Assembly (NCBI GenBank): GCA_964594835.1
Contig: CAZQNA010000001.1
Coordinates: 192,989-256,988 of the forward strand
Source of the DNA: an uncultured Nitrososphaerota archaeon
Lineage (GTDB): Archaea > Korarchaeota > Korarchaeia > Korarchaeales > Korarchaeaceae
Direction of reading: 5' to 3'
Length of the DNA stretch: 64,000 nucleotides
Below are positions 2,271-29,333 of the stretch, in pieces (within the stretch, counting starts at the first letter, position 1; every line of letters begins with the position of its first letter). Under the pieces are notes generated by a model. That model saw nothing but the letters and a program-made list of their open reading frames with translations. It had not been told where the DNA came from and searched no databases. A program made the position numbers and the translations under genes.

Positions 2271-3610
2271 TCGGGATGGTCGATCTGCTTGGCCTGGGGG
2301 AGGATGCCGTCAGGAGGGCGACCTCCGCGGGCGCCGAGGAGGCTGAGGCCTTCCTGGTGTCCGGCAGGAGGATCACCGTCGAGGTGGAGAAGGGAGAGGT
2401 GAAGACCGCGAGGTCCGAGGTCGTCTCGGGAGTCGGGGTCAGGTCCGTCGTGGGGGGTAAGGTGGGGTTCGCCTACGCCACCAGCCTGGCCGACGCGCTC
2501 GAGGTGGCCGAGAAGTCGGTCAGGAACGCCGTGGCCAGCAGGCCAGACCCCCACTTCAGGGGTCTCCCGGACCCGGGTCGGCCGACCCGGGTGGAGGGTC
2601 TCTTCGACCCAAGGGTGGCCGAGCTAGACGTCGCTGAGGCCGTGGAGTACACCGGAGAGATGATATCCGCGGCGAGCTCAAAGCGGGGGGTGGTCTCGGT
2701 CGGCGGGGCCATGAGCGCCTCGGCCCAGGAGGTGGCCGTGGTCAGCAGCCGCGGCGTGGGCGTGTCGGAGAGGAGGACCTCCACGTCCCTCTACGCGTTC
2801 GTCGCGGCGAGGGACGGAGACAGGAGCAGCTCTGGCTTTGAGGTCAACTCCGGCCGGTTCCTGAGGGAGATCAACCCCACCTGGGTGGGGTCTCAGGCCG
2901 GAGAGCTGGCGTCCGCCCTCCTCGACGCCGTCAGGGTCGAGACGGGCACCTACCCGATGGTGCTGGACCCCCTCACCATGGGGCCCTTCATCGGCTTCGT
3001 CGTCTCGTCGGCCGCGAACGGCGAGAACGTGGTCTACGGCAGGAGCTTTCTCACGGGGAAGCTCGGCCAGAGGATAGCCTCCGAGGCCGTGACGCTGCTG
3101 GACGACGGGACGCTCGCCGGGGGAGAGGCCAGCGCCAGCTTCGACGGCGAGGGGGTCCCCACAAGGAGGACGCCGGTGGTTGAGGGGGGAGTCCTGACCA
3201 ACTACATCCACAACTCTTACACGGCCGGGAGGATGGGGGCAGAGTCCACCGGAAACGCGACAAGGTCATTCGACTCGCTCCCCGGCGTGGGATCGCACAA
3301 CGTCGTCCTCGAGGCCCCGAAACTTGAGGTCTCGGAGGAGGACCTGTTGGACGTGAGGAGGGGGATACTGCTGAAGCTGACCGAGGACAGGCCCAACCTG
3401 GCCAACGGGGAATTCAGCGGTATGGTGTACATGGGGTTCCTGATCGAGGACGGCGAGGTTAAGACTGGAGTCAAGGAGGCCAGCTTTGGGATACGCCTCG
3501 TGGACCTGATGAAGGGGATAGAGGCCGTGGGCAGGGAGAAGAGGTCCGTGATGGGCGTGATCTCTCCGCTGGTGAGGGTGGCGTCGGTGAGGGTCGCTGG
3601 GCCCTCCTGA
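2267..3610 (+). CDS. pmbA: PmbA/TldE family protein
   Basis: GTGA overlap with tldD. FDGEG and STGNA motifs, no HExxxH. Confidence 0.88.
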   Translation: MIGMVDLLGLGEDAVRRATSAGAEEAEAFLVSGRRITVEVEKGEVKTARSEVVSGVGVRSVVGGKVGFAYATSLADALEVAEKSVRNAVASRPDPHFRGLPDPGRPTRVEGLFDPRVAELDVAEAVEYTGEMISAASSKRGVVSVGGAMSASAQEVAVVSSRGVGVSERRTSTSLYAFVAARDGDRSSSGFEVNSGRFLREINPTWVGSQAGELASALLDAVRVETGTYPMVLDPLTMGPFIGFVVSSAANGENVVYGRSFLTGKLGQRIASEAVTLLDDGTLAGGEASASFDGEGVPTRRTPVVEGGVLTNYIHNSYTAGRMGAESTGNATRSFDSLPGVGSHNVVLEAPKLEVSEEDLLDVRRGILLKLTEDRPNLANGEFSGMVYMGFLIEDGEVKTGVKEASFGIRLVDLMKGIEAVGREKRSVMGVISPLVRVASVRVAGPS

Positions 3611-13707: not shown

Positions 13708-15711
13708 TTGGCGGAGCGGAGGGCGTCGCTGGCCGGGGCCCTCCTGCTCATCTCGATCTGCTCTTCTGCGGCTGCGGCCCTCAGCTCGGCCGGGCCGGCG
13801 GCCTACCCCGGGCAGGCATCTCTCTCGGTCCCGGCCGTCACCACGGGCGGAGAGGGGGTGCTCAGCAGGCTAAGCGTTAGGGTCGAGCCCGGGCACGGCA
13901 GGGTATACTTCTCGGCCGACCCGCTCACCCAGCTCGACACCCAGTCGGCGGCCAGGACCGCCGCCCTGGTCGCCTGCTCCCTCCTGGGGGTCGACCCGTC
14001 GGACTACGACTTCTACGTCTCCATGGAGTCCGACAGCCTCATAGTGGGCGGCCCGAGCGCGGGGGCCGCCATGGCCGTGGCCATGGCCGCGGCCATCGCC
14101 AACCTGAGCCTGAGGGGCGACGTCGTCATAACGGGAATGGTGAATCCGGACGGCACCATAGGCCCCGTGGGAGGGGTGCCCGAGAAGCTCCGGGCGGCCG
14201 CCGAGGGGGGAGCTCACGTCTTCCTGGTCCCGGCCGGTCAGAGCGTCGTGGTGGAGAGCAGGGTGGTGGAGGAGAAGGGGCCGTTCTGGGTCACCAGGAG
14301 GGTCGTTAGGGAGCAGGTCAACGTCACCCAGCTCGGCCTCGAGCTGGGCGTTGAGGTCAGGGAGGTCCTCACCGTCAGGGAGGCGCTGTCCGTCTTCACG
14401 GGGTTGGAGTCGACCGTCGAGACCCCGAAGTCGATTGACCTCCCCGAGGAGGTGAGGACGGAGATATCGAGGTGGCTCGAATCCTACTTGGAGGCCTACA
14501 GCTCGTCCAGGGATGAGGCCGCCTCCGTGCTGGACGGTATATCCAGCAGACCGCTTAGAAGGTACGTCTCCGACGCCCTCTCGCTTGCCGACGGGGAGGC
14601 GGCGGCCGCCCGGGATCTGGCCTCCCGGGGGAGGGTGTACTCAGCCGTCAGCGCGGCGTTCAGGGCCGCCATGGAGGCGGACAGATCCATGCTGGTGGCT
14701 CGTATGGCGACTTCCAAGTCGCCGGACGAGGTCCTTCTCTCGTACGCTTCACAGGCCAACGCCTCCATCTCGTCCGCCGAGTCCCTCCTCTCATCGGAGT
14801 CACCGGGATCTCTGAGTGAGCTTGAGATCCTAGTGGGGGCCTGGGAGAGGTTGTACGACGCCAAGAAGGCCATGAGCAGGGCCGACTCGGCGTACAGGTC
14901 CGGAGATCTGATCTCGGCGGCGGAGTGGCTGTGCTACGCCAGGTGGAGGGCGCGAACCGCTGAGGACTGGGCGTCCCTGGAGGTCTCCGGCGGGCCGGCC
15001 CCGCCGCCCGAGTCGGTCTCTGGGGTCGCCTCCACTATGATGTACGAGGCTGAGAGCGTCGTGGGGTACGCCACCACCCTGCTGGAGGAGGTGGGGGCGG
15101 GAGGCGACCTCCTGGAGAGGGCCACCTCTAGCCTGGAGATGGCCAGGGAGGCCGAGGCGGAGGGGAGGATCTACGCCGTGATAGGGCTCTCGGCCGAGGC
15201 CATAGCGTACTCCACCATGGCCGTACACGGGGTGTTCTCGACCGCAGATCTCGAGTCCCTCATCATGGCGATATCCAACGAGTCTAGGGGGCTGGTGTGG
15301 AGGGCCATGTCATCCGGGGCCGTTCCGGTCCTGGCCCTCAGCTACATGGAGCACGCGGAGGTCTCCGAGTCCGGGGGCGACCTGAAAACCGCCCTCCTGT
15401 TCTACGAGCTGGCGGCGACGTACGCTAACCTCGACTGCCTCCTGGCGCGCGCCAGGCCGCCGCGCCTGATCCCGACCGAGACCCCTGAGGCCCGCCCCGC
15501 GCCTCGACAGCCCAGGGAGACCCCGGCCCCAGAGCTACCCGGGGGTTTCGGGTGGGGGGCCGTCGCCGTCGCCGGCCTGGTCGGCTTCGCGGCCGGGTCC
15601 GTCGCGGCGCTGGCGCTGTCACGCCGTAGAGAGGATCAGAGAAGCGGCGGATCGAGCCTGATCAGTACCACGCCTCCGCCCTCCGGCCGGCGAGGAACCT
15701 CCAGCCCATGA
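13708..15711 (+). CDS. Secreted/membrane-anchored S16 (Lon C-terminal type) serine protease
   Basis: Signal peptide, GGPSAG catalytic Ser, ITGMVNPDGTIGPVGGVPEK (Lys), long helical region and C-terminal TM followed by RRR. Confidence 0.85.
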   Translation: MAERRASLAGALLLISICSSAAAALSSAGPAAYPGQASLSVPAVTTGGEGVLSRLSVRVEPGHGRVYFSADPLTQLDTQSAARTAALVACSLLGVDPSDYDFYVSMESDSLIVGGPSAGAAMAVAMAAAIANLSLRGDVVITGMVNPDGTIGPVGGVPEKLRAAAEGGAHVFLVPAGQSVVVESRVVEEKGPFWVTRRVVREQVNVTQLGLELGVEVREVLTVREALSVFTGLESTVETPKSIDLPEEVRTEISRWLESYLEAYSSSRDEAASVLDGISSRPLRRYVSDALSLADGEAAAARDLASRGRVYSAVSAAFRAAMEADRSMLVARMATSKSPDEVLLSYASQANASISSAESLLSSESPGSLSELEILVGAWERLYDAKKAMSRADSAYRSGDLISAAEWLCYARWRARTAEDWASLEVSGGPAPPPESVSGVASTMMYEAESVVGYATTLLEEVGAGGDLLERATSSLEMAREAEAEGRIYAVIGLSAEAIAYSTMAVHGVFSTADLESLIMAISNESRGLVWRAMSSGAVPVLALSYMEHAEVSESGGDLKTALLFYELAATYANLDCLLARARPPRLIPTETPEARPAPRQPRETPAPELPGGFGWGAVAVAGLVGFAAGSVAALALSRRREDQRSGGSSLISTTPPPSGRRGTSSP

Positions 15712-16300
15712 CGGCCCCGACCAGAAGGCCCAGGGCGTGGGCGACGACATCGACGCCCTCGAGGAATCCGCCTCCGACCACCAGGAGCGCCACGATCACG
15801 GTGCTTGAGGAGATCCGGCCGAATCTGACCCACTCGAGCACCATGGCGACCCCGAAGAGCCCCAGTATCCCGCCGGAGGCGCCCACCGACACCCCCCATG
15901 GGGTCAGGATCGCCGACCCGAGACCGCCGACCAGCGCGGCAGAGAAGAAGGTGGTCAGCATGCGGGTCGACCCCAGGACGCTCTCGGTGATGGGCCCCAA
16001 CACGTAGAGGGCGTACAGGTTGAACGCCAGGTGTACTAACCCCGCGTGGAGGAAGATAGACGTCAGCAGGGTGTAGGGGCGACCGGAGACCATCGCCTCA
16101 AGGGAGGAGCCCCATCGGTAGAGGATCTCCTTGGACGGAAAGGGTGGCGACCCCATAGAGGCCACGTAGCCAGCCACCATGAGGGCCAGGAGCGACGATG
16201 TGGCCCACGGAACCCTGGCCTGTCTCCTGAGGATGACCGCGCTCAAGGCGCCAGCCAAGACCGAAGCTGCGAGCCTCAGCACCCAAGTCAAGTCGATCAC
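15662..16300 (-). CDS. Rhomboid intramembrane serine protease
   Basis: FLHAGLVHLAFN, VGASGG and AHALG motifs. Confidence 0.9.
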   Translation of the reverse strand: MIDLTWVLRLAASVLAGALSAVILRRQARVPWATSSLLALMVAGYVASMGSPPFPSKEILYRWGSSLEAMVSGRPYTLLTSIFLHAGLVHLAFNLYALYVLGPITESVLGSTRMLTTFFSAALVGGLGSAILTPWGVSVGASGGILGLFGVAMVLEWVRFGRISSSTVIVALLVVGGGFLEGVDVVAHALGLLVGAVMGWRFLAGRRAEAWY

Positions 16301-25252: not shown

Positions 25253-25258
25253 AAAAAA
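25253..25258 (-). terminator. Oligo-T terminator after tRNA-Trp
   Basis: T6 on the minus strand, 11 nt downstream of the CCA end. Confidence 0.6.
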
Positions 25259-25269
25259 GGTTTGAGTAG

Positions 25270-25436
25270 TGGTGGGGCCGGTGGGAGTTCCGCCGGGCCC
25301 ATGTCTTGGCCCGGATTCGAACCCACGACCTACGGGTCTCCCCCTCAGTGCTCCACTGACTGGAGCCCGCCGCCCTGCCTTTCTAGGGCGGCCTCGCCCC
25401 TATCATCGGGAGGCCACCTGGCTAGGCCACGGCCCC
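25270..25436 (-). tRNA. tRNA-Trp(CCA) with three introns (25381-25419, 25338-25359, 25287-25315) and encoded CCA
   Basis: Removing 39+22+29 nt gives a canonical 77-nt cloverleaf: GGGGCCG TG GCCT AGCCAGGCA GGGC G GCGGG CTCCAGA CCCGT AGGTC GTGGG TTCGAAT CCCAC CGGCCCC A CCA. Each junction forms a BHB/BHL motif. Confidence 0.93.
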
Positions 25437-25462: not shown

Positions 25463-25469
25463 TATATAA
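25463..25469 (-). promoter_or_regulatory. TATA box of tRNA-Trp
   Basis: TTATATA on the minus strand, 27-33 nt upstream of the tRNA 5' end. Confidence 0.7.
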
Positions 25470-25625
25470 CAGTTGCGAGGACCCCCTCCAACCGAACGGG
25501 GCGTGGGAGCGTCCCTTTTCCCGCAGCTTCACCCGTGAGCGACCGAAGTCCCGGCGAGGTCGATCGCCTCGGCCTCCACGCCGCCGACCCTCCTCACCGG
25601 CCCGGCCGGGCGCCGGAGCGCATCA

Positions 25626-26175: not shown

Positions 26176-28164
26176 GTGCCGGCGGGGCGATCGGGCGTGG
26201 GCGTCGCAGTCAGGACTCTCGCGATATGGCTAACGGTTGCTCTGGTGATCTCGCTTATCCCTCTCTCCCAGCCTGCGGCCCAGCGGGCGGAGGGAGACGT
26301 CCAGATAGCCGCGGTCAGGTGGGGCTGGGAGTGGGGGTGCGGGGTCTATCCGGGCGACAGGCAGGTTCCCCTCGAGGTCACCTTCGTCAACGGGGAGCAG
26401 GCAGTGGGGGCCATCTCCGTCGTGGCGCACCTGGAGGGACTCCCGTTCCGCGGCGGGGGAGGTGAGGACGATCCGAGGGCCGTCGTTTCGCCGATAGTCG
26501 TATTGCCGGGCGGGGCGTTCGAGGCCACGTTCCTCTTGGATGTCCTGGGGAACGCCACCCCGGGGGTGTACCGGATCCCGCTGACGCTCACCTACCGCAC
26601 CATCGAGGTCGATAGCAGCTCTCCGATCTCGATCAGCTGGGTGAGCAACGACACGTTCGACTCCACCGGAAGGGCCGCGGCGACCCTGCCGGTGCTGACC
26701 TACGGGCCGGAGGTCGAGCAGGAGTCCGTGATCGAGGTGGTCGTCGGCAGGCCCTGCGGGATTCTGTCCTTGGGAGTGACCCAGTATCCGTCCGTGCTCA
26801 GGGCGGGCGACGCCGGCGCCCTGATTATCTCCCTCAGGAACCTGGGCAGGGAGGCCCTCAGGGACGTGCTGGTGGAGGTGGAGCCCGTCGGAATCGGGGC
26901 CAGCTTCCAGGCTGCCGGCGGCTCACCCGGGTTCGACCTCCGGGGCCTGACGACCGGTGGCTCCTCCCTCCAGTCGTCGGGGGTGACCGTGGAGGGGAGG
27001 AGGGAGTTCTTCTTCGAGAGCATACCCCCGATGGGCTCGGCCCGCTTCACCGTGAGCGTGAGGGTGAGCGAGGGCTGCCCCAGGGGCATCTACCAGCTCC
27101 CCGTCAGGGTCTCGTACAGGAGGGTCGACGGGACCCACGTGGAGGAGTTGACCGTGGCGCAGGTCGTCGTCTCCACTCCCCTCAGCAGGCCTGCGTCGAT
27201 AGAGCCGGACAGGCCGCACATCAACATAGTCTCCGCGCTGACATCGCCAGACCCCCTGCCGGTGGGCGGATCAGGCAGCCTGACGATAGTCCTCCTCAAC
27301 GCGGGACCCGGGGACGCTTACGGCCTGTCACTGGACCTCCTCCCAGCCGGCGAGGAGGCGCAGCAGGCGTCGCTGGCCGGACTGATGGGAATGGCGGGTG
27401 GCATGCCGTACATGGGGGCCCCACAGTCCTCGCAGGCTGGGGGCGCCGAGTCTCCGCTGAGGATCCTGAGGGGGGCCAACAGGGTCTTCCTCGGAGACCT
27501 GAAGGCCGGGGAGAACGTCACGGTGAGCTTCGAGGTCGGCGTCGACCCCACTGCGGAGTCGGGCTTCCTGGAGGTTCCCCTCCTGCTGAGGTACCGGGAC
27601 GAACTCGGGAACAGGTACGAGGAGTCCCTCAGGATCGCGATCCCCGTTGCGAGGCGGGCGGAGCTCGCCCTCACCCTCGAGGACTCGCCGGCCCGCCCCG
27701 GTGAGGACGTAACCCTCAGGGGAGACCTCGTGAACCTTGGGGAGGGGGATGCCGAGGGGGTCGTGGTAGAGCTCGTCGACGGCGGCGGGTACTTCAGGCA
27801 GCTCGCCCCGGCCGTGGTGTCGAGAATCCCCGGCGGGGACAGGGAGGATGTCGGCGTACGACTGCTGGTGAGCGACGCGACTCCACCCGGGACTTACGAG
27901 CTGCCTCTCCGCGTATCCTACAGGAGCGGGCTCTCCCAGACAGTTTCCGTCGGGTTCACCGCAGTCGTGGTGGTGGAGTCTCCTTCCCAGACCTCCGGAG
28001 GGGTGAGCTTGAGGTCGCTGGCCCCTTGGATCGCCCTCGCGGCGGGATCCGGGGCGGCGGGCGTCCTCGGCCTCGCGACCGCGAGGAGGAAGCGGGAAGG
28101 GCCGCACTACGAGCCAGAGAACTTTTCCCCGGTTCCTGCCGCGGCTGGGGGTGATGGGGCGTGA
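26176..28164 (+). CDS. COG1361 S-layer-domain / CARDB-like surface protein
   Basis: Signal peptide, repeated Ig-like units (LRNLG, LLNAG, LVNLG, PGxY.L) and a C-terminal TM. Precedes an ABC exporter. Confidence 0.8.
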   Translation: MPAGRSGVGVAVRTLAIWLTVALVISLIPLSQPAAQRAEGDVQIAAVRWGWEWGCGVYPGDRQVPLEVTFVNGEQAVGAISVVAHLEGLPFRGGGGEDDPRAVVSPIVVLPGGAFEATFLLDVLGNATPGVYRIPLTLTYRTIEVDSSSPISISWVSNDTFDSTGRAAATLPVLTYGPEVEQESVIEVVVGRPCGILSLGVTQYPSVLRAGDAGALIISLRNLGREALRDVLVEVEPVGIGASFQAAGGSPGFDLRGLTTGGSSLQSSGVTVEGRREFFFESIPPMGSARFTVSVRVSEGCPRGIYQLPVRVSYRRVDGTHVEELTVAQVVVSTPLSRPASIEPDRPHINIVSALTSPDPLPVGGSGSLTIVLLNAGPGDAYGLSLDLLPAGEEAQQASLAGLMGMAGGMPYMGAPQSSQAGGAESPLRILRGANRVFLGDLKAGENVTVSFEVGVDPTAESGFLEVPLLLRYRDELGNRYEESLRIAIPVARRAELALTLEDSPARPGEDVTLRGDLVNLGEGDAEGVVVELVDGGGYFRQLAPAVVSRIPGGDREDVGVRLLVSDATPPGTYELPLRVSYRSGLSQTVSVGFTAVVVVESPSQTSGGVSLRSLAPWIALAAGSGAAGVLGLATARRKREGPHYEPENFSPVPAAAGGDGA

Positions 28165-29333
28165 CTCTCTACAGGATAGTCCTGGCGGACCTCAACCCCC
28201 GGAACCTACGGACCGTGCTCACGGCGCTGGGGATAGTCATCGGGGTGGCCTCGCTGGTCTCCCTCCTGGCGATAGGCTACGGGATGAGGGCGGCCGTGAG
28301 GGAGAACTTGGAGGGCCTGGTGAACATGGGCTTCATCCTTATGCCCTCCGGGGGGAGTTCCTCCGGTGGGTTCGGCCTGGGGTCTATGTCCCCCATGGGG
28401 GTCATCCCGGAGGGAGAGATCGAGGGCATCGACGAGATCTACGGCGTCAGCCTCGTGACGCCCGTACTGACTCAGGTCGGGTTCACCAGGCAGACGGGGG
28501 ACTCTGCCCTGCTCGTGATAGGCACCCCGCTCAGTGGGCTGGAGAAGGGGCTGCCGGGCCTCGTCGATGGGTCCTACTGGACGGGCGACAGGGAGGCCGT
28601 GTTGGGGGCCACGGCGGCCAAGATGCTGTCGGCTAAGCCTGGAGACAGGATAGAGATCCTGAAGAGGCCCTACGACGAGGAGGGGCTCTCTGTGAGGGTG
28701 GTAGGGATCCTGTCCTCAACGGGGACTTTCCTGCAGGATCAGGCGATCTACCTGCCGCTTGAGACCGTCCAAGAGTTCTACGGCCAGGAGGGCGCCGTGA
28801 ACCTGGTCTTCGTGAGGGTCGACGACCCTGAGGCGGCAGAGGCCGTGAGAGAGGTCTTGGTGGAGAGGTACCCAGACCTCATGATAGTGGAGACCGACCA
28901 GGTGATGCAGAACGTCGGCTCGATACTCAGCATACTGGACGCGGTCCTGCTGGGCATAGGGAGCATATCCATGCTGATCGCGGGTCTGAGCATAACGAAC
29001 TCAGTCATGATGAGCGTTAACGAGAAGGTCAGGGAGATCGGCATACTGAAGGCCCTCGGCTACACGAGGGGCGAGATCCTGCGCATGTTTGTCGTCGAGG
29101 GGCTGGCGTACTCGGCGGTTGGGGGGCCTATCGGCGTTGCCGCGGGCGTGCTGGTGGCCAAGTTCGTGTCCTCGGCCCTGTCCGTCAGGGGCTACGCGCT
29201 CCCCCTTGAGTTCGGCCCGCAGTCCGTGGTGGCTGGACTTGCGGTCTCGCTCGCCGTAAGCCTGGTCGCCTCCATCCCACCCGCCAGGAGGGCGGCGAGC
29301 ATGAGGGTCGTGGAGGCGCTGTCCCATGAGTGA
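28161..29333 (+). CDS. MacB/FtsX-family ABC transporter permease
   Basis: LTALGIVIGVAS, SVNEKVREIGILKALG and PPARRAAS motifs. Confidence 0.92.
   Translation: MTLYRIVLADLNPRNLRTVLTALGIVIGVASLVSLLAIGYGMRAAVRENLEGLVNMGFILMPSGGSSSGGFGLGSMSPMGVIPEGEIEGIDEIYGVSLVTPVLTQVGFTRQTGDSALLVIGTPLSGLEKGLPGLVDGSYWTGDREAVLGATAAKMLSAKPGDRIEILKRPYDEEGLSVRVVGILSSTGTFLQDQAIYLPLETVQEFYGQEGAVNLVFVRVDDPEAAEAVREVLVERYPDLMIVETDQVMQNVGSILSILDAVLLGIGSISMLIAGLSITNSVMMSVNEKVREIGILKALGYTRGEILRMFVVEGLAYSAVGGPIGVAAGVLVAKFVSSALSVRGYALPLEFGPQSVVAGLAVSLAVSLVASIPPARRAASMRVVEALSHE

Follow-up and report, generated by a model that had tools for sequence, protein, structure and literature searches.

Does the genome of this korarchaeon encode a tRNA for tryptophan, and if so, how could the gene escape the standard finders? 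The question is raised by a short locus on the minus strand of a 64,000-nucleotide (nt) stretch, here called the window, of contig CAZQNA010000001.1 from an uncultured archaeon of the class Korarchaeia. A first-pass annotation, made from the sequence alone, had proposed that this locus is a 167-nt tRNA-Trp(CCA) precursor which folds into a 77-nt cloverleaf once inserts of 39, 22 and 29 nt are removed from tRNA positions 17/17a, 37/38 and 59/60, each at a bulge-helix-bulge (BHB) splice motif. We cut out the three inserts by their coordinates in a script, taking the minus strand of the window for the whole gene, and gave the product to ARAGORN, which accepted the joined 77-nt molecule (17+21+22+17 nt) as tRNA-Trp(cca). 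The spliced tRNA has an acceptor stem of 7 base pairs (bp), a D stem of 4 bp, and anticodon and T stems of 5 bp each, with A73 and an encoded CCA, and its anticodon loop is canonical once the inserts are gone. Both flanking signals of the proposal, a TATA box and a T6 terminator, are present (at 25469-25463 and 25258-25253), and a TATA-like element stands at an equal distance upstream in the orthologous loci examined. The locus is a real tRNA-Trp(CCA) gene with three BHB-type introns and with its own promoter and terminator (Table 1).

Table 1. The tRNA-Trp(CCA) locus and the gene for the splicing endonuclease, in window coordinates (position 1 is the first letter of the window) unless another sequence is named.
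Feature	Coordinates	Strand	Description	Basis
TATA box	25463..25469	minus	TTATATA, 33 nt 5' of G1	read in sequence
Pre-tRNA-Trp(CCA) gene	25270..25436	minus	167 nt	sequence, splicing by coordinates and fold
Exon 1	25420..25436	minus	17 nt; tRNA positions 1-17; 5' strand of acceptor stem, 5' strand of D stem, start of D loop	alignment A1
Intron 1	25381..25419	minus	39 nt; in D loop, after C17 (17/17a)	
Box-C-like RUGAU with 5' flank, in intron 1	25402..25412	minus	CUCCC 25412-25408; G-A-U 25407-25405; GA 25404-25403; U 25402	
Exon 2	25360..25380	minus	21 nt; tRNA positions 17a-37; rest of D loop, 3' strand of D stem, 5' strand of anticodon stem	
Anticodon CCA, within exon 2	25363-25361	minus		
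Intron 2	25338..25359	minus	22 nt; canonical 37/38 site	
Putative guide and CUGA, in intron 2	25340..25355	minus	UGGAGC 25355-25350; one nt; CUGA 25348-25345; GGGGG 25344-25340	
Exon 3	25316..25337	minus	22 nt; tRNA positions 38-59	
Intron 3	25287..25315	minus	29 nt; in T loop, 59/60	
Exon 4	25270..25286	minus	17 nt; tRNA positions 60-76, including A73 and CCA	
Encoded CCA	25272-25270	minus		read in sequence
T6 run	25253..25258	minus	likely transcription terminator, 11 nt past CCA	read in sequence
Splicing endonuclease	L021:1462-2553 (contig C4, outside the window)	minus	363 amino acids; two tandem units	Pfam

All three exon-intron pairs can form a four-bp helix with three-nt bulges, in the strict or the relaxed form of the BHB motif, and every helix named in the first-pass annotation is found in the sequence. 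At intron 1, positions C12-G15 pair with an intronic CUAG to give the central helix CUAG/CUAG, which is framed by the bulges CC|A and AA|A and continues into an inner hairpin of 9 bp. At intron 2, positions C32-C35 pair with GGGG (CUCC/GGGG) beside a bulge AG|A, and a small UCAG/CUGA hairpin exposes the loop UGGAGCA. Intron 3 forms a strict BHB, with the central helix UUCG/CGGA, bulges AA|U and AC|U and an inner stem of 7 bp; here the T stem serves as the outer helix, and the T arm provides strands of both the outer and the central helix. The minimum free energy (MFE) fold of the 167-nt precursor has -94.6 kcal/mol (z = -3.2), a stability that none of 200 shuffled sequences reached. Folded without constraints, the precursor again shows its acceptor stem, the hairpin of intron 1 and the exact arrangement of three-nt bulge, four-bp helix and three-nt bulge at intron 3, reproducing the strict motif proposed there.

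We then asked whether the structure is conserved, using the 40 genomes of the class in our collection (36 of family f1, to which this genome belongs, and two each of f2 and f3) together with a metagenome scan (31 stretches). The full-length f1 matches and the metagenome scan together gave 33 distinct genes, a set that leaves out truncated copies, chance bacterial matches and Asgard-labelled genes. Removal of the homologous inserts yields tRNA-Trp(cca) in all 33, a result that chance does not explain. The exons are nearly invariant across the set, with introns that vary by compensatory changes. When the BHB structure was laid on an alignment of 22 two-intron precursors (alignment A1), 98.6% of 577 cells were paired, compared with 33-58% when the partners were slid. 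Within the central helix of intron 1, D-stem position 13 forms C-G with its intronic partner in 15 of the 20 distinct aligned sequences and U-A in five, and this covariation backs the earlier claim that intron 1 pairs with bases of the D stem. In the inner helix of the same intron, one pair occurs as C-G (11), U-G (5) and G-C (4), and the adjacent pair takes five pair types. The exons also hold compensatory changes, G4-C69 becoming A-U in two rows and U50-A64 becoming A-U in four. Since intron 1 occupies C12-G15, two of the four D-stem pairs would be unavailable until that intron is removed. The genes of two Candidatus Methanodesulfokora genomes (L016 and L018, genus g5) have A-U in place of G4-C69, and their first acceptor pair is mismatched, with A or U at position 1 opposite C72.

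The interruptions hide the gene from standard finders, as had been suspected. ARAGORN did not call the tRNA-Trp locus in the unspliced window, nor did its intron mode call the unspliced locus; Rfam gave no match there at gathering score, and between 25100 and 25600 the Rfam tRNA model stayed unmatched even at E<=10, with only weak, chance-level matches. The whole genome (1.82 Mb in 24 contigs, 65% G+C, estimated completeness 97.39%) yielded no further candidate for this isoacceptor. ARAGORN with introns allowed made 61 calls, none of them Trp; the Rfam tRNA model RF00005 gave 44 matches, none at another Trp gene; and a BLAST search with the spliced tRNA-Trp returned the four exons and T-arm similarity to other tRNAs, and nothing else. 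The first-pass annotation had considered the possibility of another intact tRNA-Trp, and these three methods found none: the gene is the single tRNA-Trp found in the 1.82-Mb genome. At contig C13:3832-3863, the 3' part of a tRNA-Pro(TGG) is identical to the 3' 32 nt of the spliced tRNA-Trp.

Several side results came from the same searches. A scan for other hidden tRNAs with an intact T arm gave 57 candidates, four of them outside the ARAGORN calls and none convincing. A tRNA-Tyr(GTA) is also missing from the 61 whole-genome ARAGORN calls, and the T-arm/acceptor scan found none either; it may be another hidden interrupted gene or lie within an assembly gap. Within the window, the intron mode of ARAGORN called two tRNA-Arg(cct) genes and one tRNA-Glu(ctc) at 3277-3411, 15360-15941 and 27641-28726, with introns of 43, 486 and 1012 nt, at places where Rfam and plain ARAGORN see nothing; the two calls with long introns (486 and 1012 nt) are probably false.

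We next mapped the introns across the class. A BLAST search with the locus found a match in all 24 f1 genomes sampled. A covariance model built from alignment A1 (model R1) gave full-length matches of 121-158 bits in 32 of the 36 f1 genomes, plus one match ended by a contig edge; 22 of the matched genomes supplied its training sequences, this gene among them with 127 bits. Introns 1 and 2, in the D loop and the anticodon loop, are accordingly present in 33 of 36 f1 genomes. Intron 1 occurs in all 33 distinct orthologous genes, where it measures 32-39 nt and intron 2 measures 20-47 nt, and the close relatives that carry the same interrupted gene include genomes assembled into one or two contigs. 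The other two families differ, as judged by insert removal and ARAGORN: the f2 genes (L056, L057) have no D-loop intron and a single intron of 56-57 nt at 37/38, and the f3 genes (L098, L107) have one intron of 18 nt at the D-loop site used in f1, another of 13 nt at 59/60 and none at 37/38. Introns 1 and 2 thus appear to be old, judging from their spread across f1 and from the presence of intron 1 in a second family of the class.

Scanning one genome per species with a sequence pattern gave 33 stretches, of which four are bacterial and at chance level and three come from records labelled Baldr- or Odinarchaeota. The remaining 26 belong to records labelled Candidatus Korarchaeum sp., Candidatus Methanodesulfokora or Thermoproteota/Crenarchaeota archaeon, or mislabelled Nitrososphaerota. 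The Baldr-/Odinarchaeota-labelled records and some metagenome contigs (L079, L080, L084, L114, L128) have a tRNA-Trp with a D-loop insertion of about 30 nt and a 66-nt intron at 37/38. That intron holds, in order, a position-39 guide, UUGA, GGGAUGA, a position-34 guide and GUGA; pairing at the fifth nucleotide fits C39 and C34, and a box C at the 5' end was not seen.

The first-pass annotation had further suggested that this combination of intron positions might be unrecorded for the lineage. That suggestion may hold for the third intron and for the complete three-site set, which are confined to this genome and one congener; it does not extend to introns 1 and 2, which are family-wide. The 59/60 intron is present in two of the 33 distinct genes, with 29 nt in this genome and 46 nt in the congener G002, and it is absent from three other congeners and from two metagenomic variants of the genus. 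The two 59/60 introns cannot be aligned in sequence. Moreover, the downstream flank of the G002 gene is closer to that of G003, which lacks the intron, than to the flank in this genome, a likeness that hints at two separate insertions and stops short of proof. The 59/60 site has probably been hit more than once, and since family f3 uses it too, it looks like an insertion hot spot. No donor copy of any of the three introns was found elsewhere in the genome, where the best non-self match spans 14 nt (E >= 0.15). Close to the 3' end of the 46-nt intron of G002 (L005) stands GUGAUGA, a perfect heptamer of box C. Intron 1 resembles exon 2 plus intron 2 by eye only, and we claim no origin by tandem duplication.

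Could the locus instead be a decaying pseudogene, or a gene whose inserts are never removed, with tryptophan decoded by a gene missing from the assembly? Its invisibility to standard finders would fit this, as would an assembly of 24 contigs with 97.39% estimated completeness and an intron 2 that departs from the strict motif. Several points weigh against our interpretation of the gene more generally. The MFE fold places intron 2 in the register CUCC/GGAG, with only A38 bulged (a one-nt 3' bulge), and so departs from a strict BHB. At intron 1, the outer helix is limited to about 2 bp. Three of the 36 f1 genomes (G007, 91% complete; G018, 71%; G044, 70%) yielded no tRNA-Trp, either with model R1 or with a 15-nt pattern allowing two mismatches, and the spread across the family is to that extent incomplete. 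Finally, with the assembly 97% complete and in 24 contigs, a second tRNA-Trp may lie in a gap. The preference of the MFE fold bears out the earlier description of intron 2 as relaxed: the BHB register CUCC/GGGG with bulge AG|A is, in the fold model, a relaxed and ambiguous alternative in this genome, and in relatives whose intron 2 ends in GAC the BHB register alone is possible. A pseudogene would nonetheless have to combine four intact stems and a canonical anticodon loop after insert removal with nearly invariant exons, compensating introns and a promoter conserved in orthologous loci. No other Trp gene could take its place in the genome according to ARAGORN, RF00005 or BLAST, and the same interrupted gene recurs in close relatives, some of them assembled into one or two contigs. 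We consider decay very improbable.

An assembly or binning artefact would have to account for the third insert, which invites suspicion by occurring in just two of the 33 distinct genes, in copies unrelated in sequence. Yet with the T arm the insert builds a textbook BHB, which also emerges when the precursor is folded without constraints, and its ends restore the T loop exactly as in the congeners that lack the intron. A different insert occupies the exact site in G002, and a 13-nt one lies there in f3; the genome contains no second copy that could have been mis-joined, the 14-nt match noted above being the best. This explanation is hardly credible, and we retain the reading of a gene with three genuine introns, which very probably functions.

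Processing of such a precursor calls for an endonuclease that tolerates relaxed motifs, and the type encoded here was among the checks that the first-pass annotation had proposed. The catalytic endonuclease domain has two matches in one frame on genome contig C4, in an open reading frame (ORF) of 363 amino acids where Pfam marks two N-terminal and two catalytic stretches. The C-terminal unit is most similar to 3p1z_B (E = 6e-39) and 2zyz_B, catalytic subunits from Aeropyrum pernix and Pyrobaculum aerophilum. This fused two-unit enzyme matches the published description from Korarchaeum cryptofilum, whose endonuclease Fujishima et al. assign, in the passages available of PMC3239211, to the alpha2 type, with a catalytic unit rooted among the heterotetrameric enzymes and equipped with the loop specific to them; the same passages call the loop necessary for relaxed motifs. 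From the similarity to crenarchaeal catalytic subunits and from that description, we infer that the endonuclease has broad specificity. A gene for the ligase RtcB is also present in the genome.

These observations suggest a model in which transcription from the gene's own TATA promoter would yield a precursor of about 170 nt, the fused two-unit endonuclease would excise the three introns at their BHB motifs, and RtcB would join the four exons. Intron 1 would borrow C12-G15 from the D stem and D loop, and the D arm would form fully only after its removal; intron 3 would be a recent insertion at a repeatedly used site. Overall, we think it very likely that this is a functional single tRNA-Trp(CCA) gene whose three introns are spliced at BHB motifs, with the steps of transcription, cleavage and ligation predicted from the sequence.

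A separate question is why conservation in two of the intron loops goes far beyond what a loop requires. In alignment A1, TGAT of intron 1 and both GGAGC and GA of intron 2 are invariant; among 33 genomes a single one has TGAC for TGAT, and intron 2 always reads (U)GGAGC, one nt, xUGA, with xCGA or xAGA in genus g2. The UGGAGC of intron 2 is complementary to G31-A36, and the fifth nucleotide upstream of its CUGA pairs with C34. This recalls the tRNA-Trp introns of Euryarchaeota, in which box C/D guides for 2'-O-methylation of C34 and U39 (Cm34 and Um39) are nested, as described in passages of PMC4090602 and PMC7994747; passages of the latter also place the base to be modified opposite the fifth nucleotide upstream of box D, as its pairing partner, and give the guide a length of 10-12 nt. 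It is conceivable, although we think it improbable, that introns 1 and 2 jointly form a box C/D-like element on the precursor besides being spliced. In such an arrangement, the pyrimidine run of intron 1 would pair with the purine run of intron 2 and create a kink-turn (K-turn) that L7Ae could bind. We put forward only as a tentative and rather doubtful proposal that a K-turn built from two introns, with the box-C-like RUGAU of intron 1 and the guide and box D of intron 2, directs 2'-O-methylation of C34 in cis. Because this conformer excludes both BHB folds, methylation would precede splicing.

Several features are consistent with such an element. The K-turn rule of PMC1865073 describes three unpaired nucleotides, the third a conserved U, adjoining tandem G:A pairs. 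Both GA dinucleotides are found in 22 of 22 distinct haplotypes (one row by manual register), and the three nucleotides before GA are N-purine-U in every one of them. Pairing between the flanks of the two introns starts exactly at the junction and extends over 5-8 bp, with a mean of 6.23 across the haplotypes, compared with a mean of 4.58 when partners are shuffled among haplotypes; none of 5000 shuffles reached 6.23, and shifted registers gave 2.6-5.4. Changes on both sides of a pair occur at -1/+1 (C-G 19, G-C 1), -3/+3 (C-G 18, U-A 4), -6/+6 (U-A 13, G-C 2) and -7/+7 (C-G 7, G-C 6), and the first inter-intron pair is flipped from C-G to G-C in one metagenomic variant. Since positions +1, +6 and +7 are not part of the central helix of intron 2, constraints from splicing do not account for the changes there. 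The genome encodes fibrillarin, Nop5 and L7Ae, and in family f3 the D-loop intron lacks RUGAU and the 37/38 intron is missing too. In f2 and in the Asgard-labelled genes, whose introns at 37/38 are longer, a GGGAUGA box precedes the same CUGGAGC segment, so that intron 2 of f1 resembles what is left of the 3' part of such a guide.

Other features argue against a joint guide. Neither intron holds a box C together with a box D: intron 2 has CUGA and no box C, and the sole RUGAU is in intron 1, without the final two consensus letters GA. A pairing that resembles a terminal stem is available only from one intron to the other. There are no C'/D' boxes, and neither intron has a position-39 guide or the corresponding complementarity. 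The guide duplex has 6 bp here as against the 10-12 nt usual according to passages of PMC7994747, although the duplex with the anticodon region reaches 9-10 bp in genus g2; in that genus the GA is engaged in Watson-Crick pairs of a local hairpin. The CUGA can also pair with UCAG, the first four bases of intron 2. Moreover, the inter-intron core of 5 bp can be explained otherwise, since the C run has a G run as its partner inside intron 1, while C32-C35 are the partners of the G run in intron 2. Mismatches occur at +/-6 in six and at +/-7 in nine of the 22 haplotypes, including those of this genome's own genus, where only the core pairs, and the shuffle test ignores relatedness and so overstates significance. 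The forced conformer lies 8.1 kcal/mol above the MFE fold, a figure that credits neither non-canonical pairs nor protein binding.

Other constructions that might account for the loops were rejected. A K-turn within intron 1 alone fails because the run before RUGAU finds no partner in the nucleotides that follow any second GA, and UGAU can pair with G37|UCA, the 5' splice site of intron 2, in some genera and not in others. A guide acting in trans on C34 was sought as well. At about 108180-108198 of contig C7 (about 891 of L109, minus strand), in a place with no long minus-strand ORF, a GAUGA box, then 10 nt that end with UGGAGCC, then a CUGA would together point at C34; we attribute this candidate to chance, as the pattern turns up in seven of the class's 40 genomes, at sites that are not homologous, and in no congener. 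Two strict regular expressions found no canonical C/D small RNA gene in the whole genome, and a C/D half-unit pattern is only slightly enriched, with 29 occurrences compared with 13 after shuffling of the genome; the boxes in this lineage's guide RNAs may be unusual. At 25567-25596 on the minus strand, a short way 5' of the tRNA-Trp promoter, Rfam reports a match to the 3' half of sR53 at chance level (14.8 bits, E = 0.54).

How does the gene compare with known systems? Like the three-intron tRNAs of Thermoproteales, it combines one canonical with two non-canonical BHB introns, is missed by ordinary finders and would rely on a relaxed-motif endonuclease; an example in passages of PMC4090602 is tRNA-Pro(UGG) of Pyrobaculum islandicum, with introns at 25/26, 37/38 and 56/57. 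Site 59/60 is among those listed there. Unlike the Thermoproteales cases, the present gene belongs to Korarchaeia and to the Trp isoacceptor and uses the sites 17/17a, 37/38 and 59/60, of which 17/17a lies outside the list in the passages available of PMC4090602; its endonuclease is a fused two-unit protein, whereas theirs consists of separate alpha and beta subunits. Within the same class, a multi-intron tRNA with a non-canonical intron is on record for K. cryptofilum (passages of PMC3239211), which also shares the endonuclease of two tandem units with a crenarchaeal-type catalytic unit. Those passages give no tRNA name, intron sites or third intron, and the identity of that tRNA with tRNA-Trp is our own suggestion; records of Candidatus Korarchaeum sp. 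contain genes with identical D-loop and 37/38 introns.

The euryarchaeal tRNA-Trp guide intron shares with intron 2 the tRNA, the 37/38 site and a complement to the anticodon loop one nt before CUGA. It differs in that intron 2 has only 22 nt and lacks a C, C' or D' box and a position-39 guide, the C-like motif being in another intron. The 65-nt tRNA-Trp intron of Sulfolobus solfataricus, as far as passages of PMC3326292 describe it, is likewise non-euryarchaeal, without consensus C/D boxes and with a short complementarity near position 34; it differs as a single long intron that forms a stable circle and has a second complementarity, to position 39, and these passages describe no D-loop intron. 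A literature search found no description of a korarchaeal tRNA-Trp, of a 17/17a intron or of a guide split between introns, nor any earlier record of the three-site combination, with GtRNAdb, SPLITSdb and the supplements of papers outside its scope. While the overall phenomenon is known, we regard as new the third intron, the combination of three sites, the distribution of the D-loop intron as mapped here through Korarchaeia and the possibility that two introns act together.

For annotation, the consequence is that korarchaeal genomes processed with standard tools will seem to lack tRNA-Trp, making this gene a test case for intron-aware finders. Its introns form a natural set of substrates (strict, relaxed, D-loop and T-loop) for gauging the breadth of endonuclease specificity, and they extend three-intron tRNAs past Thermoproteales to a lineage with a fused two-unit endonuclease. 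If introns 1 and 2 do cooperate as a split C/D element, this would be a new way to build a guide RNA and would link modification directly to the order of splicing, as the conformer must dissolve before either intron can be spliced. Across the class, the gene preserves a compact history of introns gained, lost and gained anew at fixed sites: in f2 only 37/38 is occupied, in f3 17/17a and 59/60, in f1 17/17a and 37/38, and in two genomes all three.

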